A stretch of DNA of 64,000 nt from Yuukianura sp. NJ FZ-2021. Taxonomy: Eukaryota. The DNA lies in NCBI GenBank assembly GCA_046563655.1, contig CM102285.1:1178001-1242000 (forward strand). Direction: 5' to 3'. The notes beneath the pieces are model-generated. The model was not told the DNA's origin. It was given only the letters and a program-made list of their open reading frames with translations, and made no database searches. How positions within the stretch are numbered: position 1 is the stretch's first letter; every line of letters begins with the position of its first letter. Below are positions 11,745 through 53,411 of the stretch, in pieces. A program made the position numbers and the translations under genes.

Positions 11745-12081
11745 TCAGTTTTGGGAAAAACTAGCTGCGTTGTAAATTTCCCGGTGCTTGCTCTAAAGAA
11801 AAACAAAACAATTTTTTCAGTAATTCATGCTTGACAAAATCCTAATTTTTAAACCTGTTTTTTTTTCAAGATTTTCAAGATGCTTTTTCAGTAGTTTACC
11901 TTAAAGTGTCTAATGAAGTTGGAACTATTTCGAGAATTCATGATACGTCCACACTCGGCGCATTCTGCTAAAACAGTTTTTGTCCTTGTCTGCCCAACTT
12001 GAATCGTATTCCTACTCAAAATTTTGAAAAACCCGGGAGAGAAAATATCAAAATTTCGAAACCTCCTGCCAGTAAATCCGC
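11745..12081 (-). CDS. BED-type zinc-finger cassette (12081-11900, 11792-11745)
   Basis: Phase-1 acceptor GTAACAG|GC; AECAECGRIMNSRNSSNFIRHFK|SKHREIY = C-x2-C...H-x4-H BED pattern; selector motif at 12149-12161. Confidence 0.7.
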
Positions 12082-12242
12082 CTGTTACAAAATCCAAGCC
12101 TTTTAAAATCATTCCAAAGCAATTTGAAAGTTAACACCACAGCAAACGTTGAGAAGTTCACAACAGACAAGAATTTATTCAATGTCAAACAAAATTTGCT
12201 CAAAATAATTTCTGGAATTCTTCGTTTTTTTTTTTCGACAAT

Positions 12243-12539
12243 TCAATTTTTCAAAACTTTAACATTTGGCGGCGTAAACTGCAGGATGACGTCGCTAAAT
12301 AGAACCACACAAAAATCAACGTGTTTAGATGCAAAACATTAGCAATTCACAAAAAACTTCGTTTTTGTTTAAAGAATTCTCACCTTGAAGTGCCTTATAA
12401 AGTTAGAACTCATTTGAGCCGTCATGACGCGACCACATTCAACACATTGTGCAGTAATGAGCTTTCTCTTCTGAACGTACTCAGTACTCAAAATTTGGAA
12501 AAAAAGTTGAAGAAAAAATTTTAGGTTGCAGTCCTCGGT
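12243..12539 (-). pseudogene. Second BED-finger cassette, apparently broken
   Basis: AQCVECGRVMTAQMSSNFIRHFK|GTGAG then SKH at ~12327. One extra base in a T run (~12500) shifts the frame, and the second acceptor reads TTGCA without G. Selector at 12613-12628. The frameshift could be a homopolymer error. Confidence 0.55.
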
Positions 12540-12719
12540 CTAGAATTAAGAGTTAAAATTTAAACGCATAAACAATGATTAGAAAGCTACCATTTACGAA
12601 ATGCATTCTTACACCTTGAGAACTTCACTACAACTTCAAATCTTTTCAACAATTTTTGGTTTTAAAACTTCAAAGTGTGTTAATTTTTGATAAACTGCAA
12701 TGAACTGAAACAGTTCTTC

Positions 12720-15700
12720 GATCAATGGCCATATTTATTGATGTGGCGTAAGAAATTTGAATGATGGTGAAACTTGTTACCGCATGTAGCACATTCATAC
12801 CCAGGCAATTTCCCACATTCAAACCTACAAAAGAAAAATAAAAAAAAAGTGCCCCAATATTTTTTGAAACCAAGCAAAAAATATTTAAATTACTTGATGT
12901 GACGATTCAAACTTCGTTTGTGTACATATGCTCGACCACAATTTTTTGGACATCGGAAAATACGACAGCCTTTATAAAAAAAAAAGAGAACTTAATCATA
13001 AAAATTTTAATTTGTGGACAAAAAAATTCCTGGAGAGGCTCACCACCAGGTTTTTATTTGACTAATTTTTTTGTTGCACTTTCGAATTTCGAAATCAAAT
13101 TTTGTAAAACACTATATTGTTGAAACCAATTATAAAAATTAACGACGTGAACATGTATTAGTCAAGTGGCGTTTTAAAGAAGATTTTCGGTGAAACTTGG
13201 ATCCGCATCGAGAACATTCATACCCCGGAGCGTTCCCGCACTCATATCTATGAAAAAACAACTTTTTTTTAAAACAAGTTTTTTTTTAATTCCATTACTA
13301 AAAAATGCAATTACTTCAAGTGGCGGCTCAAACTCCATTTGATTGCGTAACTTCGACCACAATTATTTGGACAACGAAACCCCACACCGCGATTATCTAT
13401 TTCAGTTTGGCCTAAAAAATAATCCAATTTCAGCTCCTCCGGAATTTAGACAAAAATTAAATACTAGAATAAAACAAAAGCATAATAAAACATTTTGTAA
13501 AACAAAAGGCTAGAGAGGCTCACCGCGTGCTAAAGTCATTGGAAAAAACGCAAAAATTAGAAAATCAGGAACACTATTAGAGACAATGTTTCAAGACAAA
13601 CAAATTTCAAAAAAAGGTTTGGTTTCCCGCCATGCAAATTTTTCTTTATTATAATAATATTGACATTATATTATAATGAATAAACTGGACCTATCGCAAA
13701 TGGTACACTACATGCTTTCTCTGTTTAGATGAACGACCACAGTTAGGGGTTGGGCAATAAAATCGATTGTTTTTTCGAATCGGATCCAAGGTCACTATGG
13801 CATGTATAAGTTTAAAATTTTTAGAAAGAAAAAAGACGATGCCTTGAGTCGACAGTTAAATCAACAAGATCTACTTCTACTCATGGCTATACAGACGTTT
13901 GAAAGGTTCACTGATTTCAAAAACTTCAAAAAACTGAAATGGACTGCACTGTTAACACACGTTAACTTAATCAGGTGAACTTAGGTTCTGTTATGTTAAC
14001 AAAAACTTAACAAAAAGTTAGCATTGTCCACCATGGTGGCTGCTTTGGTGGCGACTTAAGTTTCCACTCCAGTGTGTTTTGTAGCCACAGGGACAACGGT
14101 ATCTAGGCTCCTTGTTACACTCATGTCTGCATCAAATCAAAAACCAACAAATAACGTGACACCAATTTAAGTTATAAATTGATCACTTTTTTAAAAATGA
14201 CTTTTTAAAATCTTCAAATTAGCAAAAAGGTTCCTTTGGACAGAAGCAGGTCAATTCGTAAGCAGCTAATTCGTAAGGATTATGTTTATCACGTTTTTTC
14301 TTAATAAAGTTACGCTAATCAGAATAGGTTATGAAGCTTACAAACTGGGCTGGTTACGAATTACGTGGAACCACTTTGAACTAATGAAATATGCAAAAAA
14401 TTCACAACCTACCGAATATGCCACATGGCCTTGTCCTTCCTACTGTACGAACGACCACAGTTTGGATTAGGACAGTAAAAGCGCTTGTTTTTCAAAATCG
14501 GAACTAAGTAAGCTACGCGGTAAAGAAAAAAAGAGGACAGTTTAAACATAATTCAAGATTTCGAGTAAAGAAATAATAAGAAAGGAATATAGAAATAAGG
14601 AATAATAACAAGAATAAAGAATTTGTCTCTGGCCATGCATCACACCTTTGAAAAGTTCACCAATAGTTTAACAATGCAAAAACATCAAAAAAAAACTCGG
14701 AATAGAATTTGACAAATTTGTCGAATTTCGAAATATAAAATATGCAACAGAATTCCAAAATTTGGTATTTGGCGACAGCCAACAGTTGAAAAATTAAATC
14801 GCTGACAGCTTTTCAAATCCATCAGACAAAAACCTTGAATTTTTCTTTCACCAATTAACTATCTCCTGATTTTCAAAATTCAAAAGCAATTGAAAGTTAC
14901 TATTTACATTTCATTGCATAGCCTATTTTGAACATTTTTAAGTTTACTTAAATATAGATCCTGGGAAATGTCCAGTTCTCTTCAAATGTTGTTTAAAATT
15001 TCCTTTTTGATGAAACTTGTAGCCACATTCACAATGAAAGCTCGGATCTTTTTGGCACTCAACTCTAAAACAAATCGAAAACTTAATATTAAAAAAAATA
15101 TTTTAAAGTCGCATTAAATTGTAGCAAAATTTTCAAACGTCAAAATTTCAAGTGGAATTATTCTCACCGCAAATGGTTGGCCAAACCTCCTTTTGTGAAA
15201 TAACTCCGACCACAACCAACGGTAGGACAGCGAAACACATTCTCTAGTTACCCCATAAACTTAATTTAACAACTCTTTAAAAAAAAAGAAATGAGGATTT
15301 CCTTTGTAAAAAACAATTTCAAAACATGGCGACCTTGAGACCTAAGCTTTTTCTTTGTAAATGTAAAATTCGAAATTTTGGATTTCAAGATACAAATTAA
15401 ATTAGTTTTTTAATGCTCTCAAAATCAGTTTTTTAATGCAAGATTTATGGGAATTCAAGCTACAAATTACAATTCATTGCAAATTCGACATTCCCGTGGA
15501 CTTAACCTTAGAAAAATGGTGTATTTTTTGTAGGTGATGAACTAACGAAATTTTCCGATGTGTTTTGTAGCTACAGTGGTCACAACGGAATCGAGGCTCC
15601 TTGTTACACTCATGCCTAAATGAAAAATAAACTTTTTACAATTTTATATTATATTTTATATTATAATATTATATTATAATACTCAGCTGAACCTACCGCA

Positions 15701-18700
15701 AATGGTAGATCACAAGCTTTCTCTCTTTAGACGAACGTCCACATTTCGCAGTTGGGCAATAAAATCGATTGTTTTTCCAAATCGGTTCCAAGATAACTAT
15801 GATATGGATAAGATTTAAAATTTTTAGAGAAAAAACGACGATGTGTTGAGTCAGAATTTAAATCACCGGAATCAATTTCTGTCCATGCCTACTATGTAAA
15901 GGTTTGAAAAGTTCACCAAATTCACAAAAAGTCAAATGAACGCGTAAAAATTATTTATATTTATCCTCCATTTCCAACCAGAAAGTATTTTCTCAGAAGT
16001 CAAAATCAAAAATTCTTAGAACTACAATCACTTCTGGGCCCTTAAGATCAGTTTTTTAATGCAAGATTTGAAATTTTGGAATTCAAGCTACAAATTACAA
16101 TTCATTGCAAATTCGACATTCCCGTGGACTTAACCTTAGAAAAATGGTGTATTTTTTGTAGGTGATGAACTAACGAAACTTTCCAATGTGTTTTGTAGCT
16201 ACAGTGGCTACAACGAAATCGAGGCTCCTTGTTACAAACATGCCTAAATGAAACAAAAAATTCTCAATTTTACAGAAAAGTTCTGAAAACCAAAAGTCAC
16301 TAAACGTCAAAATTTCCATTAAATGAAACTAATGAACGGAACCTACCGCAAATGGTGGACTATCTCCCTTCTCACTTTAGCTGAACGACGACAGTTTGGA
16401 GTTGGACAATAATATCTGTTGTTTTTCAAAATTGGAACCAATGCCACTACATTAAAAATTTGAAAACAAAGAAACATTTCATGAGATTCAAAACTTCAAA
16501 TAAAAAGCAAAAATTCACAACTTTTTTTTTTAAATTCCAAATTAGGCAACAAAATTCGTCTTTCTTTTTAACTACTCGACATCAAAATTTAAAACAACTC
16601 AACTCAATTTACTCGACGTCAACTACTATGTCCACGACGTTTTGAGAAGTTCACAAAAGTCAAAACAATCGAAAAACTCGAAATGAAATTGCAAAATTCT
16701 TGAGAAATTCGCGATCGTTTCAAACAAGAAAAGTTACATAAAGAAAATTCACCCGAAGTCAGTCAACTCACATTCTCGTATAAAATACCAAAATTTTGGA
16801 TTTCAAGTTAAAAACTCCGTTTGCAAGTTGGACATTCACAGTGCACTCACTTAATCTAAAACTAACTGATGACGTCTTCGTAAATGTTGCACAAGATACC
16901 TCCTCCGATGTGTTTTGTAGCTACAGTGGCAACAATAAAAACGAGGCTCCTTGCTACATTCATGTCTAAATAGGTTAAAAAAGGAGAAGCCTGTTCATAA
17001 TTTTGCATAAAAGTTCCGAAAAAAATTCATAAAAACTTCGAAATTTCCAAGTTTACTAAAACGCAAACAATGAACCTACCGCAAATGGTAGATTAAGTGC
17101 TTCTTCTGTGTAAAAGAGCAACGACAGTTTGGAGTTGGACAACAATATCGGTTGTTTGTCAAAATCGGAACCAACGTCACTAAAAATTCAAACATTAAAA
17201 ACAAACTTTTACACAAGATTCAAAATTTTTAGAGAGAAAAAAAACGTTGGATTGAGTTAAAGTCTAAATCAGCGATGTCAATTCACTTCTGTCCATGACT
17301 ATAAAGAGGTTTGAAAAGCTCACCAAATTCAAGAAATTTAAAAAAGATTAAAAAAAAAAAACAAATTAACTTAGAAAAAAATTCTAAAGAATTTCAAACG
17401 GAAAGTTTTTTTTTAAGAAATCAAATAAAGAAATGTTTGAACTAAATTCAGTTCCTGGGTTTCAAAATAAGTTTCTTTAATGTAAAATTCAAAATTTTGA
17501 ATTCTAAACTACAAATTACATTTTAAAGAAAATTCCACATTCCGGTAGACATAGCCTAGGCAAAATGGTGTACTTTTTGTTGGTGTCGCTGAAACAATAT
17601 CTCCCAATGTGTTTTGTAGCTACAGTGACAACAATAGAATCGAGGCTCCTTGTTACATAGATGCCTAAATAAAAAAAAATAAAAAAATTTGCAAACAAGT
17701 TCTTAAAGAGCAAATTGTTCAAAATTTCCAATTTTACAGAAACTAAACCTGGACCTACCGCAAATGATAGGTCGTCTTCCTTCTATCTATCCACGAACGA
17801 GTACAGTTTGGAGTTGGACAATAAAATCGATTGTTTTCCAAAATCGGAACCATGGTTTCTAAATTGAAAATTTAAAAACAAAGAAACTGTTTTACGCGGG
17901 GTTCAAAATTTTAAACTAAAGCCATCAAACTCTGCTCCATGACCTTGTCAAAATTAAAATTTAAGAAACCTGGACCAGCGTCAACTGGATTTTGACAAAT
18001 TCAGAGTTTCTAAGAAGTAAAACAAAAGTTGTAAAACTTTCTAATTTTGAAAATTTAATTGGGTCGGACAATGCAAGAAGAATCGCTTCTAAAAGTCATC
18101 TGAAATCGATAGCCTTTTAACCAAAATAAAAATTTTGAATTCTAAACCACAAATTCATTTTGATTTAAAACCCAATGATCCGAAACTTCTACACACTAAT
18201 TTCTTCATTCAAAAATGCACTGACCACATGAAAAACATAATAAATGCCAAAAATTTACAACTTTTTTAAATTCCAAATTAGACTAAAAAATTCATCTTTT
18301 TTAAATTCGTGACGTGACGCAGTTTGGAGTTGGACAATGAAATCGGTTGTTTTTCAAAATCGGAACCAGCGTCATAGTATGCATAAGATTCAAAATTTTT
18401 AGAGAGAAAAAAAGATGCCTTGAGTCAAAATTTAAATCGGCGAGATCAATTTTTTTTTACCAATGGCAATACCGAGGCTTGAAAAGCTCACCAAATTAAA
18501 AAAAAACGCAATTGAACTTGCAAAAAATTTTTAGAGCAATTCGCGACTTCAAACGAGAATGTATTTTCTCAGAAATCAAAATAAAAAATCTTTGAATTAA
18601 AACACTTCCAGAATTTCAAAATGAGCTTTGTTTCAAAATGTAAAATCCGGATTTTTAGATTCCAAGGTACAAATGAGATTTTATTGCATATTCGCCAATC

Positions 18701-21700
18701 CTGTGAACTTAAGCTAAACAAAATGGTGTCGTTTTTGTAGGTGTTGAACTAACGAAACTCTCCAACGTGTTTTGTAGCTACACTGGCGACAATGGAAACG
18801 AGGCTCCTTGTTACATTCATGTCTAAATAAGTTAAAAAACAGAGCAGCCTGTTCATAATTTTTCATAAAAGTTCTGAAAAAAATTCATAAAAGCTTCGAA
18901 ATTTCCAAGTTTACTAAAACTCAAACAATGAACATACCGCAAATGGTAGCTTATATGCTTCCTTTGTGTGGAAGAACGACGACATTTTGGATTTGGACAA
19001 TGAAATCGGTTGTTTTTCAAAATCGGAACCAACGTCACTAAATTTAAAAAATTAAAATACAAACTTTTACACAAGATTCAAAATTTTTAGAGAAAAACAA
19101 TGATGGATTGAATCAAAATCTAAGTCAACGATGTCAACTCACTTCTGTCCATGGCTACACAGAGGTTTGAGAAGCTCACCAAATTCAAAAAATTTAAAAA
19201 AAAGATTAAAAAAAAAACAAAAAAAAATGAACTTGCAAAAAATTCTACAAGAATTCGCAGTTTCAAACGGGAAAGTTTTTTTTTCTAAGAAATCACATAA
19301 AAAAAAATGTTTGAACTACATTCAGGTCCAGCGTTTCAAAATCAGTTTCTTTAATGTAAAATTCAAAATTTTGAATTCGAAGCTAAACAAATTACATTTC
19401 ATTGCAAATTCGACATTCCCGTGGACATAGCCTAAGCAAAATGGTGTACTTTTTGTTGGTGTTGATGAAACCATGTCTCCCAATGTGTTTTGTAGCTACA
19501 GTGACAACAATAGAATCGAGGCTCCTTGTTACATTGATGCCTAAAAAAAAGAAAACTTTTCAAAAATTTGTAAACAAGTTCTTAAAGGGCAAATTGTTCA
19601 AAATTTCCAATTTTACAGAAACTAAAGCTTCACCTACCGCAAATGATAGACTAGTTTCCGTCTCTCTTTATACGAACGACTGCAGTTTGGAGTTGGACAA
19701 TAAAATCGACTGTTTTTCAAATTCGGAACCATGGTTTCTAAATTAAAAATTTAAAAACAAAGAAACTGTTTTACGCGGTACTCAAAATGTTAAACTAAGA
19801 AAGCAATTTAACTTTATTCCACGACCCATTTCAAAACTTAGTTATGGTAAGATAAAAATGAAAAAGCCTGGACCAGCTTGAACTGGATTTTGACAAATTC
19901 GCAGTTTCAAGAAGTAAAAGAAAACTATCTAATTTTGAAAATTTAGTTGAGTCGGACAATCCTTCAAGCAGAACCGCTTCTAAAAGTCATCCAAAATCGA
20001 CAGCCTTTTAACCAAAATAAACATTTTAAATTCTGAACCACAAATTCATTTTGATTTCAAACACAATGATCCGAAACTTCCACAAACTAATTTCTTCATT
20101 CAAAAAAGCACTGACCAGGACCACATGAAACCCATAATAAAGAAATACCAAAAATTTACAACTTTTTTAAACTCCAGATTAGACTAAGAAATTCCTCCTT
20201 TTTAAATTCGTGGCGTCAAAATGTAAAACAACTCAACTCAATTGAGTAATTCGTAGCGTTTCAAACAAGAAAAGTTCAACAAAAGATTATTTTATTTACA
20301 ACCACTTCTAGGGTATCAAAATTCACTTTTCTTCTACAAATTTCGAAATTAATTTCAAACTATACATTCCGGTTTTATTACAAATTGAACATTTAAGTCA
20401 GCCTCACTTAACCTAGAACGGACTCATGAACACTTCGATGGTGTCGAGCAAGATCGCTCTTACGATGAGTTTTGTAGCTACAGTGGCAACAGCGGAATCG
20501 AGGCTCCCTGTTACATTCGTGACTAAATAAGTAAAAAAAAAAGAACAAATTGATAATTTTGCAGAAAGGTTCTGACAAAAAATTCATAAAAACGTGGAAA
20601 TATCCAACCAAGTTGACTAAAACTCAAATAATGAACCTACCGCAAATGGTAGATTACATGCCTCCTATGTGTGAAAGAACGACGACAGTTTGGAGTTGGA
20701 CAACAAAATTGTTCGTTTTTCCAAATAGGAACCAAAGTTGCTAATGCAAAATTTAAGAAAAAAAACTGCTTCCAACGTTACGATATTCAAAATTTTAAAA
20801 TAAGAAAGCAATATCCTGTTCATGGCTTTGACCTTTGAAAAGTCCACTGTAAATTTGAAAATTCAAAAAACTTCGATAATCTTCAACTAAATTTTGAGAA
20901 ATTCCGTCTTCAGATAAGACGTGAAAAGTTTTTAAACTCAAAATTTAGTTGAAGGAAAATAGCTTTAAGTACAGCCGCTTCCAAAATTGCAAAATTCTTC
21001 TGAAATCGAAATTCTCGCTGAAATCCAAAATCCAAAATTTTGAATACTAAACAACAAACTCGCTTTATTTTAAACACATTGATCCGACAGTTCCAAGCTC
21101 ACTAATTTCTACGATTGAAAAAACAATACTGACTACTATCGAAATTCTACACTACAAAACTCGTCTTTTTTGAAATTCGTGATGTAGTGAAAGTTTTAAC
21201 CAAATTCACCATGCTGGGTGTATCGATGGCGATCGAAATGATATTTCCAATGTGTTTTGTAACCACAGTGACAACGGTGGCACGGGACCTTGTTACACTG
21301 ATACCTACATCAAAAGTCATAGCAAAAGTATTCTATCAAATTACTGTTCAAAATTTTAGAAAAAATAAAATTCAATTTTAGTTCAATTTTTACTCCAACC
21401 ATATAAACATACCGCACATGGTTGTAAAGACTCTTTTTCGCTAGATAAGATCGACTGCACTTTGGATTTGGACAATGAAATCGACCGTCTAAAAATTTCA
21501 AACAAATCTTAAGATATTTTTAGTTTTCAAAGTCTAACTGCAAAATGCAAAATTCGAAACTTGCAACTTTCTGAAAAAATCAATCATTTATGTCCATGGC
21601 TTCCTTTCAAACGTTCACCAAATTCAAAGATTGAAAAAACTTCAACAAGTAGGTAACAAGTTTAGAGAGTGTTAGAAATGTGTATAACATAATTCTAAAA

Positions 21701-22335
21701 TTTGTCATTTGCTTTAAAATTTAATACTGGGTTTGAATTTTCCAGACTACCATAAAACTTACAAAGTTAACCTTGGTGTTTAATGGAGGCCAGGCGCCAA
21801 TTTCCAGAGTATCAAAATTCACCCGAAATCGCTTGTCTTGTACAAAATTCGAAATGGATTACAAACAACACATTCCGTTTTTGGACATTCACAGTCACGC
21901 TCACTTAACCTAGAACGGATTGATGACGATTTCGTTGGTGTTGAAAAAGATCCCTTCTCCGATGTGTTTTGTAGCTGCAGTGGCAACAACGGAAACGAGG
22001 CTCCCTGTTACATTCATGTCTAAATAGGTTAAGAAAAGAGCAGCCTGTTCATAACTTTGCATAAAAGTTGTGAAAAAAATTCATACAAACTTCGAAATTT
22101 CCAAGTTTACTAAAACTCAAATAATGAACCTACCGCAAATGGTAGATTATATGCCTCTTATGTGTAGAAGAACGACGACAGTTGGGAGTTGGACAATAAA
22201 ATCGTTCTTTTCCCAAACAGGAACCAAAGTGGCTAATCGAAAATTAAAAAAAAAACTTGCTTCAAACGATATTCAAAATTTAAACTAAGAAAACAATATC
22301 CTGTTCATGGCTTTGACCTTTGAAGGGTTCACTTA
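12720..22335 (-). CDS. Distal block of two-exon C2HC+C2H2 ZF variable cassettes (~13 complete pairs plus 2 broken)
   Basis: Each unit: phase-1 acceptor, exon A (RFxCPxPxCxRSY...HLR), phase-2 intron, exon B (xECNKEPRFxCxxCxYKTH...H...H*). Approximate spans: 12720-12970, 13139-13410, 14018-14510, 14945-15243, 15470-15790, 16090-16450, 16850-17180, 17516-17860, 18660-19040, 19390-19738, 20408-20740, 21180-21490, 21905-22232. Broken: 13690-13800, 18320-18380. Confidence 0.85.
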
Positions 22336-22537
22336 TAAAAAATAAAAATTTTTTAAAACTTTAAACTTTCTTCAAGTAACTTTTTAGAAATTCGATTTGT
22401 CTAGAGCGACGGCATTTTTCCCTGGATCGTTTTCTGTTTTTCTTGGTATGTTGTATATATACCATTTGTGGTATATATTCGTTCATCAATCATATTTAAT
22501 TGTACTCAAAGATTTTTAAAAACAAACGAGAAAATTA

Positions 22538-22810
22538 TTAACTAGATGCGACATTAGGACCATTTTAAACAAAATTTTTGAAGCAAATGTTTTGTGACGT
22601 TTCTCCTGACAACTTACTCAATTTCATAAAAGTTAAGCCTGGTTCACACAAGATTTTATTTTATAGCAGATTATAAGTCCTCAAAAATTGGAATTCCTCG
22701 TGAGAACCGTGCTTAAACTTGAGGTGAAAGCGGTTTTTTACCTCTTTTAACCTCTTTTAATTTGCTTCAAAAATTTTGTTGAAAAACTGCCTAATGTCCA
22801 CTCTAGTTAA
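22538..22810. mobile_element. Small MITE-like element with ~50-bp imperfect terminal inverted repeats
   Basis: taactagatgcgacattagg...aaaatttttgaagcaaat at left is the imperfect reverse complement of atttgcttcaaaaattttg...cctaatgtccactctagtta at right. Confidence 0.55.
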
Positions 22811-23012
22811 AAGAAAAAATTAAAAAATCGTCCTGGTAACTCTATGATTGTACTACATCATGTAAAACCGAGGCAAATATTTAACTACTAAACTCGTTTA
22901 TTTTGTCACATGGAAAAAATGGATTATGATTTGAAATGAACTTAAATTAGATGGAAATCTTCTTACGTTTTCACAAAATGACAAATTCATTTCAGAAATT
23001 TAAGTTGTTTGA

Positions 23013-34000: not shown

Positions 34001-37000
34001 TTAACACCAAAATATTTTTCAGAAAAGTGATTTGTGCCAATGGCCTCCAGGTTTGAGAAGTTCATCACTTCAAACAAAAAAAAACAGGAAAATTTGTTGC
34101 CGAAATACCAAAATTTATTAGAAATTTACTTTTTTTTAGTTCATGGCTAACTGTAACCTGCGTTTGAAAATTCCACTGAATATTATTTTAACTTTAACCT
34201 TAGGACAAAAAGTTGGATACACAAAAGTTAGTCTAAACTTGCTAACGTATCCTAATTGTCACCATGACAGCTGTATTCGTGGCGCTTCAAATTCTTTTCC
34301 CAGTGGGATTTGTAATCACAGTAGTCACACTTGTGGCGAGGTTCCTTGTTACATTCATACCTAACAAAAAACAAAACCCAACACTAGTACAACAACTTTT
34401 TACAACTTGACCTAATATAAAACTTTTTTTAAATTTAATAAAATCTTTCCCATAAAATCAAAATTGTTATTTTTTTATCCAATAATAGAAAATAGTAATG
34501 AACATACCGAATATGCCACAAAGCATGCTTTCTGTGCATGTACGAACGACCACAACTTGGATTTGGACAATAAAACCGATCGCTTTTATAGATCGGAACC
34601 AAGACCACTACAAAGACAAATTTAGAAAACACAAACACCGTGTTAGACGAAATTCACAATTTCAAACAAACAATTCAACTTCTTTCTGCTCATGACCTTT
34701 GAAAAGTTCACTAAATTAAAACTTTTAGAACAAAACTTAGAACAAGCTACTAAAACCTTGTACTAACGTTGTGCTTAAGGATCTTAGAACAAAACCACCA
34801 AAATTATTCTCAATTTTCCATCCTTAAATCCTAATGAGGTTGTGACTGTTTGTTAACCTATCAAAAATTAAGAAAGTCCACCATGGTGGGTGATTTTGTG
34901 GCGAGTTAAGTTTCGGATCCAGTGTGTTTTGTAGCCACAGTGACAACGGAATCTGGGCTCCTTGTTACATTCATGTCTACATCAAATCAAAAAAATTCTT
35001 TTCCAAAAATCTTTTAAACAAGATGAAATTTTTGGATTCTATTCCAACTACTTATATGAGCAGCCGTGGACCTACCGAACATGATTGATAAGGCTACATT
35101 TCCGAAGATACGAACGACCACAATTCGGATTTGGACAACAAAATCGGCTACCTAAAAATTTAGAATGGCCACACTAAACTAGTTCAAACTTAAAATTTAT
35201 ATAAGCATTACGTTAAAAAAAAAAACCAAACACCAGACTTCGAATGAATCCAAAAATTTACTTCGTGCCAAACGAGGACCATTGAGAAGTTCACTCAACT
35301 CTAAATTTTAAAATATGAAGTTCAAAATTTGGCAACCACAAATTCCCTTTTTGAAATTTATATTGTATTTATTATACATATTTTTATATCCACCATGGTC
35401 GAGGAAAAGAAAGTTCTAATTCAACAAGAGTTTCCACAATACCAAAATTTATCCAAAAACACTTTTCGGGTCTAAAATCCGAACTTTTGGATTCTAAAAC
35501 TCCAAATTCGGATTTACTTCACAGTATCACCTCAACTTAACCCAAAACTTGTTCCATGAACTTGCTTTTGATGAAGTGCTAAACACGCCTTCCGCTGAGT
35601 TTTGTAGTCACAGTAACAACAACAGTAGCACGGAGGCTCCTTGTTGCACTCATTCCTGCATCAAAAAACGAAACATTTCGTAATTCTGTCCAAAGTTACA
35701 AAAAAAAAGTTCAAAATTTCAAATACTACTCCAACTCAAAAAATCTACATACCGCAAATGGTAGGCAAGATCCTCTTTCAAATCAAATGAACGACCGCAG
35801 CTCGAAGTTACACAACAAAATCGAATGCCTAAAAATTTCACAAACAAAATTTGGAACACAAAATTTGTGACCATGGACCTTGACGTTTGAGAAGTTCACT
35901 TCAACTCACAAATTCACCAATTTTAAACCAAAAAAAAAGTTTAAACCAAAACGAAATGCCAAAATTTTTAGTACAATGAAATCTATTGGGAATTCCTAGG
36001 CAAAATTCGTATTTCGAAATTCGCGTCTTCGTAATGTTGACGCTGACGCTGGTGACGAACTAAATGTGATTTCCAATGTGTTTTGTAGCCACAAGTTCAG
36101 TGACAAGTTCAGTGTTCAGTGACAAGAGAGACGAGGCTCCTTGTTACATTCATACCTACATCATTCAAAATGTTGTTCAAAATTTTGAGTTTTCTAAGTC
36201 AAAATTCAAAATTTGTTTGTGGAAGGTCTGGACTTTACCGAAGATGACGAACTAGACTGCCCTTTACAATAAAAGCCCTACGGCAGTTGGGAACTGGACA
36301 ATGAAATCGCCGATCTAAAAAGCCAAAACGAGAGGAAGCAACTACCAAAATTCAAAATAAAATTTGGAACATAGAAATATGAAAAACAATTTCCAATGCC
36401 TGTCCATGACCATTGAGAAGTTCAGAAAGTTAAACACAACAGCAAAGATGAAAGGACAAGACGCAAACTTTAAACCAGTTTTTTTTTATGAGTAAACATT
36501 TAAGAACTCTAGTTTTAACAAAAATCTTTAACTTTGTACTCACGTTCACAATTTTAAAAAAGCCGAAAAGTCCTTCCCTGACTAACACAAACATGAATGA
36601 TAATTTTTAATTTTTATATTCCAAGGTTTTAAAATTAAATATAATTTTTTTTAAACTTCTCTAACTTGTAAATAAAACTTTTTGAAATTGGTGTTCATGT
36701 AGACTAACATTTAATAAAAAAAAAGTTTAAGTTCGCCCACCGTGGCGTCTGATTTGGTGGCTATTTAAATGTGATTTCCAATGCGTCTTGTACCCACAGT
36801 GACAAAAGTGACGAGGCTCCTTGTTACATTCATGGCTGCAACGAAATCTAATTTTAGAAGAATTTCCAAAAAGTTACAAATGATGGAAGAAAAAAACCTA
36901 CCGAAGATGAGAGAGAAGACTGCGTCTATGATTATAACAACGGCCACAGTTTGGAGTTGGACAATAAAACTGCTTCTTTCCTACAACCGAAAACGATGTA

Positions 37001-37725
37001 ACACACAATTTAAAAAAAAAACAGCTAAGACGACTTTTTTTTTCCTTTATGACCTTGAAAAGTTCACAAATTAAAAAAAACCAACAACCTTATTTAAGAA
37101 AAAATTTTTGAAATTTTCATTTTCTATAGAGAAATTTTCGTACTTCATGAATTTCAAATTTCACATTTTTCAAATTTCCTGGTGGCATCACGTGTCTTCA
37201 ACGCGTGTCAAAGTTCACAATCTTGAAGTAGAAAAAAAACGCAACCTACCGCATATGACGAATAAGACTCTTGCGCCAACCATAAGAACGGCCACAGTTT
37301 GGAGTCGGACAGACAAACCGATTGCCTTTTTACAAATTCAAAAAAAACTGAAATAATAAAAGTATAAACCGAAACTTCAAAAGCCATTCGAAAAATTTTC
37401 AAAAAACTTCCATTTCCATAATTTTGTAACAAAGTTTATTACATTCTGTCCATGGCATATGACCTTTGAGAAGTTCACAAATTGAAAAAAATAACAGAAA
37501 TCTCAAGATAGTGGCTTCGGAAAACGCAGAACCAACGTTAAAACGTTGTTTAAAAGTGGACTACGTTTTTTAGTCTCATTCCTTTCTTTAGAAAACCGCT
37601 GCAACAAAATGCAACGACGCCCAATGAAAGCACCTTGTCGATGACGTGTTAAATGGTTCATAGTGTAACTCTTATTGTAGCCACATCCACAAAAAGAACG
37701 AGGCTCCTTGTTACATTGATAGCTA
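25010..37725 (-). CDS. Central block of two-exon ZF variable cassettes (~19 pairs plus an orphan A and an orphan B exon)
   Basis: Same architecture. Approximate spans: 25010-25340, 25690-26084, 26420-26700, 26968-27278 (broken), 27630-27980, 28256-28540, 28750-29090, 29560-29880, 30165-30444, 30844-31139, 31637-31918, 32316-32611, 32790-33083, 33735-33984, 34240-34607, 34868-35151, 35537-35828, 36000-36314 (stop), 36727-36980. Orphan A 37249-37325; orphan B 37560-37722. Confidence 0.85.
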
Positions 37726-37840
37726 AGATCAAACACAACTTAATCAAAAACTTACATCAGATTTACATCAAAAACAAGTTACTCATTTTCGTAATTCAAA
37801 AACAGCTTTAAAAAAAATTCATTTTTTCACAACGTTTCGA

Positions 37841-40800
37841 CTAATCAGAATTTAGACATTGCAGAATGTGCAGCCCTCCTCAAGTGCTTTTCAAAATTTC
37901 CTTTGTGATAAGACGTGTAGTCACAATTGTTGCAACGAAAAGTCGGTGTTTTTCGACACTGAAATCTAAAACAAAGGTTTAAATGCTTAAATATTGTAAA
38001 TGTATTTTATGTATTGTAAAATACAAACACACATGTCATAACTGCGAAAACTTCGAAAAAAAAATCATCTCAATGTTCAACATTATTATCAAAAAACCTA
38101 AATAATTATAACAAAAAAATATACCGGAGGTGTGACCTAAGATATTTCATCCGCTTAAATGATCGGCCACAATTTGCATTTGGACAACAAAATTGGCTGC
38201 CTAAAACTCAGAAAAGAACGAAAATATTTAAAAAAAAAAAAGAGTTCACAACATAAATCAAAATCAAAAAATTTAAACACCCATGGCGTTTGAAAAGTTC
38301 ACTAACTTCCACAAACTTCAAAAAAGTCAAATTCCAACTTAAAACTCAAAATCCAAACTCCGAAGCGCTATAACATTTCTGAAAAATTTTCAAAAAATAA
38401 AATAAGAATGTGTTCTAATTTTCGAAATTCAAAACCCCTAAAAACAACGTTTCTTTTTTCATAACTTAAAGTATTTTGTTATGTTAGAAAGCGGAGTATG
38501 TCCAGTCTTCTTCACATGATGTCTCAAATTTCCTTTGTAATGATTCTTGTAGCCACACTCGCAATGAAAACTCGGTTCTTTCTGACACTCATATCTAAAA
38601 CCAGCCCAAAACTTAAGAAAATCCACTTACTTTTCATCAAATACAAACTTCGAAATTTCGATTTCAATCATCCTCACCGAAAATGGTTACTCAAACCGCT
38701 TTTTGTCCAGTAACTCCGATTACAGCCAACAGTCGGACACTGGAATCGAATCCCTGTTACCCCAAAAACATGTTTGTTTTTTCGTTTTTGAAAGAAAATG
38801 TTTCCAATTGAATTGTGAATGAAAACAATTTCCAAAACCTGGCGACCTTGAGAAAAACACGCAACGGAAAGTGGAAAGCTAATTTTAAAAAATTGAGACG
38901 ATGCCACTACAATTCTGAAAACTAAAATATTGAAATTTAGAACAGCCACGTCAATTTTTCTGTTGACTTTGGAAATAAATTTTTACCAAATTTTAATTCT
39001 CGCCGAATTCCAGCAAAGACTAACCACTCCAAAAACATTCAGGTAATGCAAAACAGTGTTTAAAAGCCAGCTGATGAAAAACCTTGCATTTTTCCTTGAT
39101 CGATTAACCATTTCCCGACTTTCAAAAGTCAAAAGCAATGAAACTAGCTATTTTTATTTCTTTACATATAGCTTATACTTTGTACATTTTTAAGTTTACT
39201 TAAATTTAGATCGTGAGAAATGTCCAGCTCTCTTCACATGTTGTTTGAAATTTCCTTTTTGATGAGTCTTGTAGCCACATTTGCAATGAAAGCTCGGTTC
39301 TTTTTGACACTCATATCTAAATCGAAAACTTAATATTTAAAAAATTTATTTTTATTCTACGCTAAATTATGTAAAAAATTTTAAACGTCAAGATTTTGGT
39401 TGGAATTATTCTCACCGCAAATGGTTGGCCAAACCTCCTTTTGTGAAATAACTCCGAGTACAACCAACAGTAGGGCAGTGGAACACATTCTCTAGTTACC
39501 ACAAAAACGTAATTTAAAAAACATGACTTCTTAACAAAATTTAAAACATGGCGACCGTGAGGAGAACATGCAATCACTAGTTGACTTCAGCATGAAAAAC
39601 TGGAAAATATAAAACTACTTTTACCAAGAATCTAAACTAAAATTAGGAAATTTCGAACTACTATCACATAGTCCATAACCGTAGAGCACTTCACCAAATT
39701 CATTTAGTGATTGGATCAAAATCTAACAATTTTTGGGTTTTGGGACTCGGAAAATGTCCACTTCTCCTCAAGTGTCTCTTAAAATTTCCTTTTTGATGGA
39801 ACTTATAACCACATCGGCAAATAAAACGTGGTTCTTTCTGGCACTCGTTTCTAAAACAAAACAAAACTTCACTTTCAAATAAAATCAGAGTGTTCAATAA
39901 AAAAATTTCGAATACAAAAATTAATGTTCCAAAATCGCAAACTTCAAAATTTCGAAAAACCCTGCCTCACCGAACATGGTTCCCCAAACCGCTTGATGTC
40001 CAGTACTTCCGGTTGCAATTTATATTAGGACAGTGGAACCGTTTCACTGTAGTTTTACGTCAAAAAATAATAATACGAGAAAGTATTTTTTTAAATACCA
40101 TGCAGTTTTTAAAAATGGCGACATTGAGGGGAACAATTTTGGACAAACAGCAAAATTTATTTCAAAAGTTACTTTTCAACTTTTTTTTTTTTCAATTGAT
40201 TTAGCACTACAGAGAAGAGGTCAACTGTGCCGAATGCCCTTTACTTTTCAAGTGCCTGATAAAATTTCCTTTTAGATGAAACTTGCAGCCACAGTTGCAG
40301 AAAAACGTCGGCTCTTTCTGACACTCAAATCTAAAACAGTAAAACCTCAATTGTCCAAACTTTTGAAACAAAAATCAGAAAACTTCAAAATTTTGATTTC
40401 AATTATCCTCACCGAATATGACTCCTCAAACCTTGTACTGTCCAGTAACGACGCTTACAACCAGCATTAGGACAAGGGAGTCGTGTACCTACGTGTATTT
40501 CACGAAAAAAAAGTTGAAAAACAGATATTTTAAAAAAAAAACATAAAAAAAACAATTTTTAATTTAAGAAAAGCGATTTTAGAGCAAGACGACTTTGAGG
40601 ATCGAGTAATGTCAATGTGTAGCAAAAATCTAATAAATCTAACTGGTGTTTTTGAAATTCGTGACGTTTCAACTTAAAATATAATAAATAATTTTATTTC
40701 ATATAAAAGTCAACGACTTTCACTATGGTAGTGTTTCATGTGGCGATTCAAATTGGACTTTCTGTGGCATTTATAACCACAGTGGCAATGGTAACCAGGC

Positions 40801-43800
40801 TGCTTGTTGCATTCATACCTAACGCATTCAAAAAAAAATTCCAAGTTCCTTCAAAAAAATTTGTAAAACAAAACCAAATTTTCACTTTGATCAAATTTGA
40901 TCCAGTAAAAAAAAATTGACGTACCGAATATGTTCAGTGAGATTCCCTTTTCGACGATAAGAACGTCCGCAAACTCGACAATAAAACCGATTGATGTTAA
41001 CATTCACTACATAAGTGCCAAAAATATTTCACAAACCCAAAATTTGCAGCAAATAACTTATTTTGATTTTTTTACTTTAACACATAGACCTTGAGAAGTT
41101 CACTAACATACCGAATTCAACAGAAACTGCAGCCTGCATATCAGTTCTCAAAATACAAATATAAAAAAAACTTTCTTAATGTATCTAAATCTATTTATAA
41201 TTTAGAAATTATGTCAAACACTCATTTTCCACGACGTTTCCCTTTTTTCATGAAGTATTGGTCAGAACTTGGAGAATGTCCGAGAGTTTTCAAGTGTTTT
41301 TTTAAACTTCCTTTTTGATAACTCTTGTAGCCACATTGGCAATGAAAACTCGGATCTTTTTGACACTCGTATCTAAAAGAGATAAACAAATATTTCATTT
41401 TGCACAATTTCCGAAAACAACAAAAATAAGAATAAATTTACAGTAAAAAATCAGAAAATTTCATTTCGATTTGAATTATGCTCACCGAAAATGGTTAATC
41501 AGCCCTGATTTTGACATGTACCAACGATAGCAACCAACATTAGGACAATGGAATCGATTCATCCCTATTTACGCCAACAAATTAAGTTCACAACTCAAGT
41601 TCATTACAAACTTTGAATTTGTAAAAATTAAATTTAAAAGGTTTAGAAAAAGGTTTTTTTTTTTAACATGGCGACTTTGAGCGGAGTTAGGTCAAAACCA
41701 AGAGCGATTTTATTACTTGAAATGAACTTAAAAAAAACTCTGAACAACGATTTCGCATTTTCAAAAAAGTGGAGAATGCCCACTAGTTTTCACGTGTTTG
41801 GTTAAGAATCTTTTTTGATAAAACTTGAAACCACATTCGCAATGAAAAGTAAGATCTTTCTGGCAGTGGCAGTAATACCTAAAAATAAATTTAGTTTCCC
41901 AGAATTTAGTACATAAAAAAGCTCAACTTCAAAATTTAGATGCGAATTATATCCTCACCACAAATGACGCCACAAACTTCCTACTGTGAAGTACCGACGA
42001 TTACAGCCAAAATTCGGACAATGATACTGAATCTCTATTTGCGAAAAAAAAAACCAAGAAGTTACATACGAGTATGTTTCTTTTTTTTTTAAATGAACAA
42101 AAAAAAATGTAAAAGTCGATTTTCACCGATGGCGAGTTTGAGGAAAGTAGAAAAAAAATTAAAAACTTAAAAAATACATAAAACTTTTTTAAAAAAAATT
42201 TGACGACTATTGAATTTCTTTTGCAATGTTCCTCTAGACCCGATATCTAAAATTAACCATTTCACACAATTGAAACGGAAACTAACATCTTTGTTCATAA
42301 TCTACCGCCTTTTTTTCGGGAAACGATACTAGACAGTGGAGAGTGCCCCATCCTCTGCAAATGTGATATTAAATTTCTTTTTCGGATAGTCTTGTAACCA
42401 CATTTGCAATGAAACTTCGGATCCTTTTGACACTCATTTCTAAAAACAAACGCAAACCATAAAGTTTTTAAAACATTTTTCGGAAAAAGACTAAAAATCT
42501 AAACCTTTTCATGTTTTGAAAACGAACCTACCGAAGATGGTCCGCGAGATGGCCTTTGTGACGATAAGAACGACCGCAATTTGGAGTTAGACAATAAAAC
42601 CGATTGTTTTTAAAAATCACTAAAACAACCAACAACAATCTAAAAAAATCCGAAACAAATCTTCGACCTTTGAGAAGTTCACTACAATTTAAAATTTTAA
42701 ATTTAATTCATCAACAATTTCCAAAACATAGATTCCAAAGGGAGACTTTTTTTTTTTAATAAAACGTTCAACAAAATTTCACACCAGGATTTCAAAAATT
42801 TGAGATGGCAAAAGCCTATTTTCCAGTATGTTTTCGTTTTGTCTTAAAAACTGACTGAGTAGGTGGAGAATGCCCAGTTTTTTGCAAATGCCTTTTTAAG
42901 TGTTCTTTTTGATAAAACCTGGAGCCACAAGCACAATGAAAACTGGGGTCTTTCTGGCAGTACAATCTAGAAGAAATTCATTTAGATTTTACTTCAAGAA
43001 ATTTAAAAAAAATCAAGTTCCAAATTTCGATTCCTCACCGCAAATGATTCCCCAAACCTCCTTTTGTCAAGTACCAACGGCTACAGCCAACATTGTGACA
43101 ACGGAATCGTGTCTCTGTTTGCCCCAAGCAAAAAAGTCAATAACGTCAAAAAAAATCAAAAAACGATGAAAGCCTAAGTTCTTTGAAAATGCGTTTAAAA
43201 AATTGTTAATTTTCAACAATGGCGACTTTGAGGAGAGTAATCTTGACAAATCAATAATTTACAAAAAATTTCATTCAAGTAAAAAATCGAAAATCTAAAC
43301 AAAATTGAAAACTTAAAACTTAAACAGCTTTGGCCTTTGCCAACTGAATAAAAAAGCAAACCTTTAAAAATCTAGATTCAAAGAAACTTCTTCAAATATT
43401 TAAGGAGTACATTTCTAGACCCGAATTTTACAATTCAAAATTTCAAAATTTTACACAATTCAAAACCGTTTTAAACGCACATTATGATTTCATACACTAC
43501 GACCTCTTTTTGAAAAGGCCACTAGACAGTGGGGAATGCCCTCTTCTCAGCAAATGTGATTTTAAATTTCCCTTGCGATGACTCTTGTAGCCACATTTGC
43601 AATGAAACCTCGGAGCTTTTTGACATTCATCTCTGTAAAATGCAAAACTCCAAATTTCAAAAACATTTTTTTCAGAAAATGAACTCAAAAACTAAAACTG
43701 TTCAAAATTTCAAAAACAACCTACCGAAGATGGTTCGAGAGATGATTTTTGCGACCATAAGAACGACCACAGTTTGGAGTGGGGCAATAAAACCGCTTCG

Positions 43801-44455
43801 TTTTAAAAATCCCTAAAATACCAACAAGAATCTCACAAAACCAAAATTTTGAAACATCTTTGACGCTTGAGAAGTTCACTACATTTCAAATTCAAAAAAA
43901 GTTAAACGACAATTTTCCAGATTCTAGAGAAACTTTTTAAAACATTAAAGGAACTTTCTCCCTCACAGTGCCTTTTTCTAGACCCCAACTTGCTAAAAAC
44001 ATATTCTCGGTTTTAATCCAAAATTTTGAAAAATTGACAAAATTCAAATTTTAAGTTGTTTTTTTTTACCGCCTTTTTGAACAAGTTACGTTAGATAGGG
44101 GAGAGTGGCCACTCCTGTTCAAATGTGCTTTTAAATTTCCTTTTCGATGACTCTTGAAACCACATTGGCAATAAAACTTCGGATCTTTTTGACAATTATC
44201 TCTAAAAACGAAATGAATATTTCAGAAAGATGAACTAGATTTTTTAAAAATAATTTTGAACTCTTTATAATTTTTGACTATTCTCACCGAATATGGTTCC
44301 TCAAACCTCCTCGTGTCCGGTAACGCCGTTTACAACCAAAATTTGGACAACGATACCGACATTCTAAACCACCAAAAAAAAATCCTTTCGCATCGATTTT
44401 TCTTTTTTCGTTGTACAAAAAAAATCGAGGCAAAAAAATGACGACTTTGAGTGGA
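37841..44455 (-). CDS. Proximal block of two-exon ZF variable cassettes (~12 pairs, mostly ECQK.P.F.C.CGYK...KGN...H....GH type)
   Basis: Approximate spans: 37841-38200, 38464-38753, 39200-39490, 39700-40047, 40200-40487, 40690-41008, 41222-41563, 41760-42033, 42302-42620, 42844-43112, 43497-43812, 44066-44362. Checked example: exons 43812-43725 and 43632-43497 give GIFKTKRFYCPTPNCGRSYGRKNHLSNHLR|DECQKAPRFHCKCGYKSHRKGNLKSHLLRRGH...*. Confidence 0.85.
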
Positions 44456-45159
44456 AACACAAATCAGAAAAGTTAAACAAATTTTTCTTCAGGCACAGAA
44501 ATATCCAACTTTTACGAATTCTACAAAATTTCTTCCGATTCAGAACTTGGTCTTTATTTAAAAAAAAACTATTTAAAAGTTACTAAAAATTATATTCAGC
44601 ACATAAGCACAAGTGTAAAGCTTTCTATTACCGGGATTAATCAAATTCTGTTCTCGCACCAAAAACTGTAATTTCAGAACCGTCGGCTCAAGAAAAAATG
44701 TTCACTGTATCTGTATAACCCATTCCCTGCTTCCGGCTCTCCAGAATTCGAAACCACGTTTGCTTCCAGTATTTCTTCTAAAACAGAAATCTTAGTTTAA
44801 AGAAAATTCACCACAGACGACAATGAGAGAGATCTTCAGAAAAATGAAAGGTAAAATAAAAAAAAGAACGGCCGAAATATGGCAAAAGTAAAAATTAATT
44901 CAAAACGATTTTGAAAAAAAAAACTGAAGAAAATTTGTCAACTATAACGTTGAAAATTGCAAAAATTCATAAAAATTAAACAAGAAATCCACACACACAA
45001 ACACATACAAAACGACAGATATTGCTTTAGTAAATCAAGGTTAGTAGCTTCCAAAATAATAAAAATCAACTGAAAAAATATGACTTGATTGTCCAAAACT
45101 GACTCTGGTTTCTAATCTAAGCAAAATCAAACCCCGTAACCTAACCATGACCTAACACA

Positions 45160-45458
45160 TTAACTATTTCCGTCAATTGACGAAGCACCCAAACTAGCAG
45201 TCGTGTCGCACAATACCTCAAACAATCCGTGTTTCAGAGACTCAAAACCGAGATTATCTACATCTTGGTGGATTTGAACTTCCGGAACTTTGGCGTGTAC
45301 CCGATTCATATGATTAGTGAGATGTGTATTGCGTTTTGCCTTAAACGGACACAGAGTACAACTGAATCTAGGTGGAATTGCTGGACAATCATACAGTAAA
45401 TGCATTTTGCGACTCTTCTGCGTCACAAATTTACGACAAGCACGACACATAATTCCAC
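45160..45458 (-). CDS. Single-exon ZF variable cassette (C2HC + C2H2)
   Basis: TTTGATTCAG|GT phase-1 acceptor; GGIMCRACRKFVTQKSRKMHLLYDCPAIPPRFSCTLCPFKAKRNTHLTNHMNRVH..., the lola-type finger pair. Confidence 0.8.
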
Positions 45459-45710
45459 CTGAATCAAACCACAAAAAATCATGAGCCACCGATTACGCCA
45501 GAAACTACTCTCAATTCCAAATTCCAAAACTTTCAACTTCAAGTCAACACCAGACGGCCCTGATTGGCACACCACAACGTTAACGTTAGTACGTTTACGC
45601 ACAAACGACAACTTCACAACTCAAAACTGATGTTTCACAGAACCACCGAAATTTTACTCACAAAAACCGAAATTTTTGAGTATGGTAAAAAAGTAAACAG
45701 TCTTCGGATC

Positions 45711-45910
45711 CTACATGTGATCTTTCTTTTTCATGTGAGCCAATAAGTGATGTTTCTTTTTCGCCACAAAAGTACACCTTAAGGGACATCGCAGATCAGC
45801 CAATTTGGACTGAAACTCACAGTCATTTGCTGCGTGACGAAGATGATCCAATAACCCTTTGTCAGGGTAAGTATTTCCACAACCGTGACACTTCCATGTG
45901 TTAACGCAAC
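45711..45910 (-). CDS. Single-exon ZF variable cassette
   Basis: Phase-1 acceptor TTGATTAAG|GT; GCVNTWKCHGCGNTYPDKGLLDHLRHAANDC...LRCPLRCTFVAKKKHHLLAHMKKKDHM*. Confidence 0.65.
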
Positions 45911-46041
45911 CTTAATCAACACAAATACCCGCTTGTGACCAACAAAATATGGCTAACATTTCAGTTCAAGCGAGTAACACATTATACCTATTCAATGTTT
46001 TTGTTAATTCATGACTGCTAGCAGAGATAAAGCAGAGCAGT

Positions 46042-46199
46042 TTACTGAAAGTAAATAGTACTTTCACAAATCACGTCACCAAAATTGCAGATTTCATTAA
46101 TTGCAATTGCCATTGGCGCATTTCTGCTAAAATGACTGGGCTTGCTAGTGGAGCAAGCCTTTTGCAGTAGCAAAACTGTCACACCGTAACAGTTTTTAG
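46042..46199 (-). CDS. Candidate zinc-finger-less terminal exon
   Basis: Pyrimidine-rich acceptor TTTGTCGCTTCTTCAG, open in phase 1 for ~52 codons, preceded by a selector-like motif at 46258-46276. Confidence 0.4.
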
Positions 46200-46682
46200 C
46201 TGAAGAAGCGACAAATCGACGATCGTTGCTTAGAGACAATCGATCCGACTCGATTGAATGCCATGGCGAACTTAAGTTTTTTTTCCAAAAGAGTGTCAGA
46301 GTAAAAGAGAGCTCGGTATCCACCAATACTTGGTCATGATCTCACGAAATCAGCTGATCATCGAATCAATAAACTCAGCAACAAGAATAAGCAAAGCACC
46401 GTTATGTTATTTCAAATTCAAGCGGAATTTGCCTATGTTCGGATAAGTGGCAATGATACTGGAACATGAATACGACTTAACCAGTTTAGTTTAGTAATCC
46501 AATTTTGAAATGAAGTATTCCGAAGCGAAAGCATTCGGAAAGATTCCAAAGATTCAAGCAGTTTCAATTTGAAACTTTCGAGACAGAAAACGTTATAAAT
46601 AAGGAAAGACATCTTTAAAAACGTTATGTCTGATCAGTTGTGATCTTTTGTAAATCGTTAACTTTACGACTTTGTTTTAACG

Positions 46683-46712
46683 TGGTGAACCTCTCAAGGT
46701 CGCCATGGCATA
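46683..46712 (-). promoter_or_regulatory. Putative splicing docking site (transcript 5'-UAUGCCAUGGCGACCUUGAGAGGUUCACCA-3')
   Basis: Lies 33-63 nt into the intron after the last constant exon. The only full-length copy noticed in this orientation; complementary to motifs upstream of ~45 variable cassettes. Confidence 0.8.
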
Positions 46713-46745
46713 TAAACTCAAAGGCAAAAGAAGTTCGGGGCTTAC

Positions 46746-53356: not shown

Positions 53357-53411
53357 AGGCTTTTGAATTTGGAAACTACGGAAGCGTAAAAGGGACATCG
53401 AGATTTCGGAA

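Follow-up and report, generated by a model that had tools for sequence, protein, structure and literature searches.

In a 64,000-nucleotide stretch of the genome of Yuukianura sp. NJ FZ-2021 (contig CM102285.1, positions 1,178,001 to 1,242,000; hereafter the window, whose own numbering is used throughout), a minus-strand BTB gene places its constant coding exons (48089-46746) upstream of about 50 alternative terminal zinc-finger cassettes. The intron that follows the last constant exon contains one short element, the dock, and most cassettes are preceded by a sequence complementary to it, the selector. A docking-site/selector system of competing RNA pairings most probably selects the cassette in this lola-like gene. 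The arrangement stands well apart from its statistical controls, it is specific in strand and position, and both the dock and the layout are deeply conserved. If Dscam1 exon 6 and the Drosophila genes PGRP-LC, CG42235 and Pip are a guide, pairing would activate the neighbouring acceptor and decide the choice.

The dock, TATGCCATGGCGACCTTGAGAGGTTCACCA, is present where the original prediction had placed it, at 46712-46683 on the minus strand, and begins 34 nt past the last constant 5' splice site (exon end 46746, GAAG/gtaag). It sits within a conserved block of 34 nt, TATGCCATGGCGACCTTGAGAGGTTCACCACGTT, and is single, with no other copy in its orientation save a short local anti-dock (Table 1). 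The selectors, 43 in number and all in the same orientation, belong mainly to two families. Type A has 36 copies of the pattern GGTGAACTTCTCAAAGGTC..GCCATGG, the full form being (G)GTGAACTTCTCAAAGGTC followed by 0-9 nt and then GCCATGG; its partner in the dock is the 3' two-thirds and, on the far side of a loop, CCAUGGC. About nine copies, some of them weak, make up type B, CTCAAgGTCGCCATG, whose pairing is contiguous and covers the 5' two-thirds of the dock. Type B precedes the CPxxGC/ECQK class of cassettes, such that selector type tracks cassette class. Dock positions 10-26 are common to all 43 pairing spans, as expected from the predicted overlap of selectors on one dock; the spans are minimum-energy duplexes that include interior loops, and the core helices of types A and B overlap by about 9 nt. 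Every selector quoted in the original prediction was recovered (15340-15325, 16/16; 38853-38840, 14/14; 41103-41087; 42683-42663; 27390-27360; 13046-13014; 37479-37446; 22333-22305; 12162-12133). Rfam yields no family anywhere in the 64-kb window.

The cassettes number 50, close to the earlier estimate: 44 were recognised by regular expression and six by eye, two of the latter being BED-type and the two most distal of the array (12446 and 11962). Within the array, the first-exon motif ..FYCPxPxCGRSY..HLR has 44 matches and the second-exon motif ECxKEPxFxCxCxYK..H has 41. The usual cassette consists of two exons separated by a short intron, with a stop after the second. The 41 second exons reach a stop 31-47 codons past their Cys, and AATAAA or ATTAAA is found within 200 nt in 24 of the 41 cassettes, where about 34% would be expected by our own arithmetic from a hexamer density of 2.05 per kb. 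As each second exon closes in its own stop, often with such a signal, the cassettes look like alternative terminal units, and their layout suggests that the zinc-finger cassettes are used as alternatives. They clearly originated through tandem duplication. Pfam C2H2 models give weak matches, under the curated cut-offs, on one cassette. At 24422-23016, a cassette of another type combines a 147-residue open reading frame without Pfam match and a zf-Di19-like C2H2 exon, preceded only by a weak selector-like word (-23.9 kcal/mol). A zinc-finger cassette that shares the usual two-exon build (51036 and 50685 on the minus strand) is located upstream of the BTB exons and lacks a selector, its best pairing with the dock being -19.6 kcal/mol.

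Pairing energies were computed with RNAduplex for the dock against 36-nt windows, and separate peaks at or below -27 kcal/mol were counted. The minus-strand transcript of the whole window gives 49 such peaks, 47 of them in 11000-46600 and only two outside the array, compared with four in the plus-strand reading, among them the complement of the dock itself. Counting the array alone, there are 43 peaks at this threshold and 29 at or below -30 kcal/mol for the dock, whereas 12 dinucleotide shuffles of it give 8, 2, 1, 1 and eight zeros. For 13 natural 30-mers taken from the constant region, the count is 0-5. A count of ungapped complementarity, in which G-U was scored as a full match, was dropped, with G- and U-rich low-complexity words scoring above the dock; energies and shuffles were therefore used.

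The dock complement had been claimed to stand before most cassettes, and for 40 of the 50 cassette first exons the stretch 30-300 nt ahead of the first Cys codon indeed holds a site of -27 kcal/mol or lower, vs 1 of 50 on the antisense strand of the same stretches and 5 of 50 in the control 270 nt downstream. From the 3' end of the selector to the acceptor, predicted as the best in-phase AG, the median distance is 82 nt (range 40-346; measured in 35 of 45 cassettes, those for which an upstream selector is listed). All listed selectors precede first exons, intact or decayed, and among the listed sites no strong dock-complementary site was seen in an intron internal to a cassette. The strong selectors at 29431-29399 and 18494-18457, which have no intact cassette, look like remnants of decayed ones. 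Selector strength shows no correlation with distance from the dock (rho -0.15, p=0.35). Weaker matches occur in second-exon coding sequence, where in several exons the stretch encoding EPRFRC.HC can pair weakly with the dock (-25 to -28 kcal/mol; 32892-32865, 30934-30906, 22005-21975, 20508-20478, 18806-18778). This complementarity may be due to chance, or may hint at the origin of the selector sequence.

When the 36 type A copies are stacked without gaps, the columns from -2 to +15 hold 0.3-2.3 bits, mostly above 1 bit, and spell exactly the dock complement, whereas the remaining columns of the 130-nt frame hold at most 0.5 bits. Flanking intron sequence is thus more diverged than the motif, as had been noted, and since the motif is informative and its flanks are not, it constitutes an island of conservation and no repeat unit or transposon fragment. 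Its variable helix positions alternate between A and G or between C and T, with both alleles able to pair (position 6, 31 A and 5 G; position 8, 27 T and 7 C; position 10, 19 C and 17 T), while positions opposite a dock A or C are invariant in 35-36 of the 36 copies.

The dock is also retained in relatives. A protein search with constant exon 2 returned relatives at 39-51% identity, and an alignment of these, used as a metagenome query, retrieved 17 loci where a single protein query had retrieved none. Searched with up to five mismatches, the 24-nt dock core is found in four of the 17, without mismatch in L002, L003 and L007 and with five in L004; L002 and L003 are near-identical contigs of one assembly. 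In the remaining 13, the contig ends before the dock point or the gene is another BTB gene. In all four loci the core begins 41-51 nt past the same GAAG/GTAAG. The 34-nt block is identical at 34 of 34 positions among the window, L002 and L007, and at 28 of 34 in L004. Among the first three, the last 40 exon columns agree at only 16-22 of 40 positions, the spacer at 9-14 of 28-35 and the following 60 columns at 12-18 of 42-52, and protein identity in the neighbouring exon is no more than 39-49%. The related loci may be orthologues or old paralogues; either way, the intron block has stayed constant while its surroundings diverged.

L002 has selectors of its own: 18 dock-complementary sites at or below -24 kcal/mol lie in the 9.6 kb after its dock and one in the 11 kb before, while the opposite strand has seven besides the dock's own complement. 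The sites alternate with zinc-finger pairs, each about 100 nt upstream of a pair. Their forms include GGAAGCCATGGCATATAG, of the GCCATGGCATA type, which has almost nothing in common with type A and complements the other end of the dock. L004 (1921-7338) is a BTB locus in which all cassettes are BED-type. Its dock carries five changes in the 24-nt core and six in the 34-nt block, mostly in the 5' half, and its short selectors (GTGGTGAA..) pair with the 3' half only.

Several observations weigh against pairing as the basis of cassette choice. Ten of the 50 cassettes lack a site that reaches -27 kcal/mol, those with a weak selector or none being 45890 (in the 30-300 nt range), 44349, 43100, 42020, 40474, 40032, 31904, 28525, 19699 and 17820. 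The site of cassette 32596 is located inside the preceding coding exon, and its exclusion leaves 39 of 50. Acceptors and cassette use are predicted only, and the duplex energies are those of isolated oligomers. The anti-dock can pair back onto the dock in a hairpin of -17.7 kcal/mol (region z-score -3.2) that was not found in L002, L004 or L007; this feature of the window alone could mask the dock. In L004, the only locus whose dock has changed, the selectors show no preference for their own dock over that of the window (4 vs 3 peaks at or below -24 kcal/mol, 5 vs 7 at -22 and 9 vs 13 at -20), and one L004 match (3910) falls in coding sequence. L007 shows no enrichment in the approximately 0.8 kb after its dock, a stretch too short for a judgement, with one sense site vs five on the opposite strand, including the dock's own complement. 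Helix changes are one-sided and wobble-compatible only; with so little variation in the dock, no clear covariation of both sides is seen. The excess of wobble-permitted transitions over forbidden ones (53/288 vs 21/216, p=0.007) lends modest support, because duplication makes the rows kin, the helix end accounts for 16 of the 21 forbidden changes and the row at 26207, one of the 36, is one base out of register; 8 of the 12 interior positions allow wobble anyway.

In the proposed mechanism, the selector, situated a median of 82 nt upstream of the predicted acceptor, would pair with the dock in the constant intron. One dock RNA would hold one selector at a time, because all selectors need the same dock middle, positions 10-26. 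The duplex would set the 3' splice site of the selected cassette beside the constant 5' splice site, and the cassette would be joined. A docking site and selector sequences were reportedly described for Dscam1 exon 6 by Graveley in 2005, and PMC6191721 lists this system too. Both systems have one dock after a constant exon, a selector before each of about 48-50 tandem variants and overlapping complementarity, and in Dscam1, too, the dock is the most conserved element of its intron. In contrast, Dscam1 encodes a cell-surface receptor and its variants are mutually exclusive internal exons with further constant exons after them, whereas the cassettes described here are terminal two-exon units with their own stops in a transcription-factor gene, for which no repressor or activator partners are known.

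In Drosophila PGRP-LC, CG42235 and Pip, too, a dock follows the last common exon and the alternative 3' cassettes are preceded by selectors, and disruptive and compensatory mutations showed that pairing activates the nearby 3' splice site (PMC6191721). Their arrays comprise 3, 5-7 and 10 cassettes, whereas the array in the window comprises about 50 over 35 kb, with at least 43 selectors, and is known from sequence. Pairings of this kind are considered in the same paper to be probably rarer at 3' variable regions (PMC6191721). The layout of the window gene resembles that of Drosophila lola and mod(mdg4), in which an N-terminal BTB constant part is joined to a DNA-binding exon drawn from many 3' alternatives. 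For these two loci, a search for sequences by which donor intron and acceptor RNAs could pair turned up nothing of consequence, and joining depends on a U1-binding pseudo-5' splice site together with RNA-binding-protein motifs (PMC4387717, PMC13490949). The window gene differs in having a dock and selectors. No TSA-core-like pseudo-5' splice site with two or fewer mismatches occurs in 46745-45911, roughly the first 830 nt of the intron, or in L002:11010-12250, although the comparison with an 11-nt U1-complementary consensus is a weak test.

How loci of the lola and mod(mdg4) type unite a single 5' part with one 3' DNA-binding exon out of dozens is not yet settled. A search of a limited literature collection found no description of a dock/selector system for lola or BTB genes, and a text search of the same collection found the dock letters in no paper. 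The architecture itself is known elsewhere (Dscam1 exon 6, PGRP-LC, Pip); here it is real and conserved, on the scale of Dscam1 exon 6, at the 3' cassette array of a lola-like gene. The range of 3' cassette arrays under dock/selector control would thereby widen from 3-10 to about 50 cassettes, and the dock offers a concrete, mutable element for testing isoform choice in a large transcription-factor family.

Pairing mostly within one pre-mRNA is favoured, although the same duplex would serve between transcripts too. The cis arrangement is preferred because the inter-cassette gaps are short, about 135-260 nt from a cassette stop to the next selector in examples checked by hand, and because the known precedents, dock/selector systems of 3' variable regions, act in cis (PMC6191721). 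Alternatively, pairing could take place mainly between molecules, with separately made RNAs of single cassettes or cassette groups carrying the selector in their leader and being trans-spliced under the guidance of the dock. This would be a variant of the dock/selector explanation, compatible with it, and we consider it unlikely. Trans-splicing is conceivable because stops and likely poly(A) signals follow the cassettes, and a single transcript would therefore need to read through many likely poly(A) sites. Precedents exist in Drosophila lola and mod(mdg4), whose variable parts are attached to the constant part in trans, either partly or wholly, according to PMC4387717 and PMC13490949, and in mite sDscam-beta, whose trans-splicing is described as promoted by RNA pairing (PMC9258826). 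In the latter, base pairing between RNAs of the tandem-array locus of Tetranychus urticae is proposed to join splice sites; unlike the situation in the window, it links transcripts of different clusters, not one dock with dozens of competing selectors (PMC9258826). The orphan cassette upstream of the BTB exons would fit joining in trans in its position, but not in its lack of a selector (best pairing -19.6 kcal/mol). That pairing-guided trans-splicing assembles some 50 transcription-factor isoforms of a lola/mod(mdg4)-type locus in this lineage is unlikely. If it does, and if loci with the identical 34-nt dock share a genome, the same code could allow cassette exchange between loci.

It is considerably less probable that the motif is a protein-binding element, whether an RNA splicing enhancer or silencer or a DNA promoter or insulator element, and that its complementarity to the intron is incidental. 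Type A is a compact conserved word, and a few conserved bases, in the aatTTgGT that precedes this word and the GGACAG that follows its GCCATGG, are dispensable for pairing. Transitions are moreover the commonest substitutions anyway, and the wobble pattern is therefore not decisive. A protein site would not, however, lead one to expect that dissimilar families (type A, type B and the GCCATGGCATA type of L002) complement adjoining parts of one contiguous dock, nor that in four loci the spacing between the constant 5' splice site and the sole inverted copy is fixed. That copy is invariant across 34 nt, which exceeds the usual protein site, and 43 of 43 selectors share one orientation.

A functionless relic, namely duplication-borne sequence or a piece of a repeat, together with one inverted copy, would suit the tandem duplication of the cassettes and the association of type B with the CPxxGC/ECQK class, but is highly improbable given an informative motif between uninformative flanks, only 2 of 49 sense-strand sites outside the array in the window, a dock identical at 34 of 34 positions between loci whose exons share 39-49% protein identity, and selectors before cassettes of the unrelated BED type.

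The gene was predicted to be a lola-like BTB and zinc-finger gene, an assignment that Pfam and the best named matches uphold. Four constant coding exons were read off the sequence of the window (Table 1), and the N-terminal BTB domain typical of lola-type loci is present in them in two halves, the first detected by Pfam in 48119-47898 (E=2.6e-12) and the second in 47830-47087 (E=2.7e-8). Among named proteins, lola is the best match to the BTB part, with 54-62% identity across 21-27% of the query, and bric-a-brac and broad rank close behind. The gene is best described as lola-like, the lola matches covering the BTB part alone.

Table 1. Features of the BTB locus in window coordinates. For selectors, the remarks give the energy of pairing with the dock (kcal/mol) and the cassette that follows, identified by its first Cys.
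Feature	Coordinates	Strand	Remarks
Constant exon 1, coding part	47919..48089	-	ATG at 48089; N-terminal half of BTB domain; ends CAG/gt
Constant exon 2	47114..47830	-	Second BTB half and Pro/Ala/Ser-rich linker; Pfam BTB; relatives 39-51% identical
Constant exon 3, 70 nt	46956..47025	-	Splice sites from sequence; frame continuity by hand
Last constant exon	46746..46865	-	GGC GAA G/gtaag; phase 1 end
5' splice site GTAAG of last constant exon	46741..46745	-	5/5 identical in all pairs with related loci
Local anti-dock GAACUUCUUUUGCC	46724..46737	-	9 nt past 5' splice site; pairs back onto dock
Docking site	46679..46712	-	30-nt dock 46712-46683 within 34-nt block identical in L002 and L007
Array of about 50 putative alternative terminal cassettes	11891..46256	-	Regular expressions and inspection by eye
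Selector, mainly dock 5' half	46257..46288	-	-30.5; first cassette, 45890; similar first selector at L002:11485
Atypical G-U-rich dock-complementary site	45546..45575	-	-33.4; 45447
Type A	43860..43880	-	-27.4; 43786
Type A	42663..42683	-	-29.2; 42593
Type B	41666..41701	-	-29.6; 41547
Type A	41079..41104	-	-32.2; 40980
Type B, weak	40114..40136	-	-25.0; 40032
Type B	39546..39569	-	-28.2; 39477
Type B	38836..38864	-	-36.4; 38739
Type A	38280..38303	-	-32.8; 38186
Type A, strongest of all	37446..37479	-	-39.0, 26 bp; 37311
Type A	37043..37068	-	-28.7; 36963
Type A	36395..36425	-	-29.9; 36300
Type A	35869..35900	-	-31.7; 35814
Type A	35265..35298	-	-34.7; 35137
Type A	34686..34712	-	-28.4; 34569
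Type A	34034..34068	-	-33.1; 33970
Type A	33164..33193	-	-33.9; 33069
Type A	31232..31264	-	-30.7; 31125
Type A	30556..30584	-	-33.3; 30430
Type A	29982..30010	-	-30.2; 29866
Type A, orphan	29399..29431	-	-31.2; no intact first exon ahead of next selector
Type A	29160..29192	-	-30.8; 29051
Type A	28035..28068	-	-34.3; 27936
Type A	27360..27390	-	-28.1; 27263
Type A	26772..26811	-	-34.3; 26685
Type A	26183..26206	-	-27.1; 26043
Mixed type	25487..25516	-	-38.3; 25296
Type A	22305..22333	-	-31.3; 22195
Type A	21588..21621	-	-37.7; 21474
Type A	20820..20848	-	-32.7; 20702
Type A	19145..19182	-	-36.3; 18999
Type A	18457..18494	-	-34.8; then truncated first exon
Type A	17289..17326	-	-29.8; 17141
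Type A	16626..16655	-	-34.8; 16408
Type A	15879..15917	-	-28.2; 15758
Type B	15324..15349	-	-32.0, 16/16 contiguous; 15229
Type A	14631..14663	-	-34.5; 14474
Type A	13877..13912	-	-31.9; 13756
Type A	13507..13524	-	-27.8; 13373
Type A	13014..13046	-	-30.0; 12952
Type A	12589..12628	-	-28.5; BED-type, 12446
Type A	12133..12162	-	-34.6; BED-type, 11962

Elsewhere in the window, the minus strand carries two long open reading frames in tandem, similar to each other, at 5287-6444 and 7637-8731. The first has a Pfam match to Terpene_syn_C_2, the microbial type of terpene synthase (E=1.1e-8), and also matches protein atlas clusters of bacterial and fungal terpene synthases; a terpene synthase-like reading frame adjoining an arthropod-type BTB gene is unusual. 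A run of 100 N at about 2650-2750 marks an assembly gap. Upstream of the BTB exons, at about 52300-62000, one set of open reading frames occurs three times at a spacing of about 3.15 kb and forms a tandem repeat.

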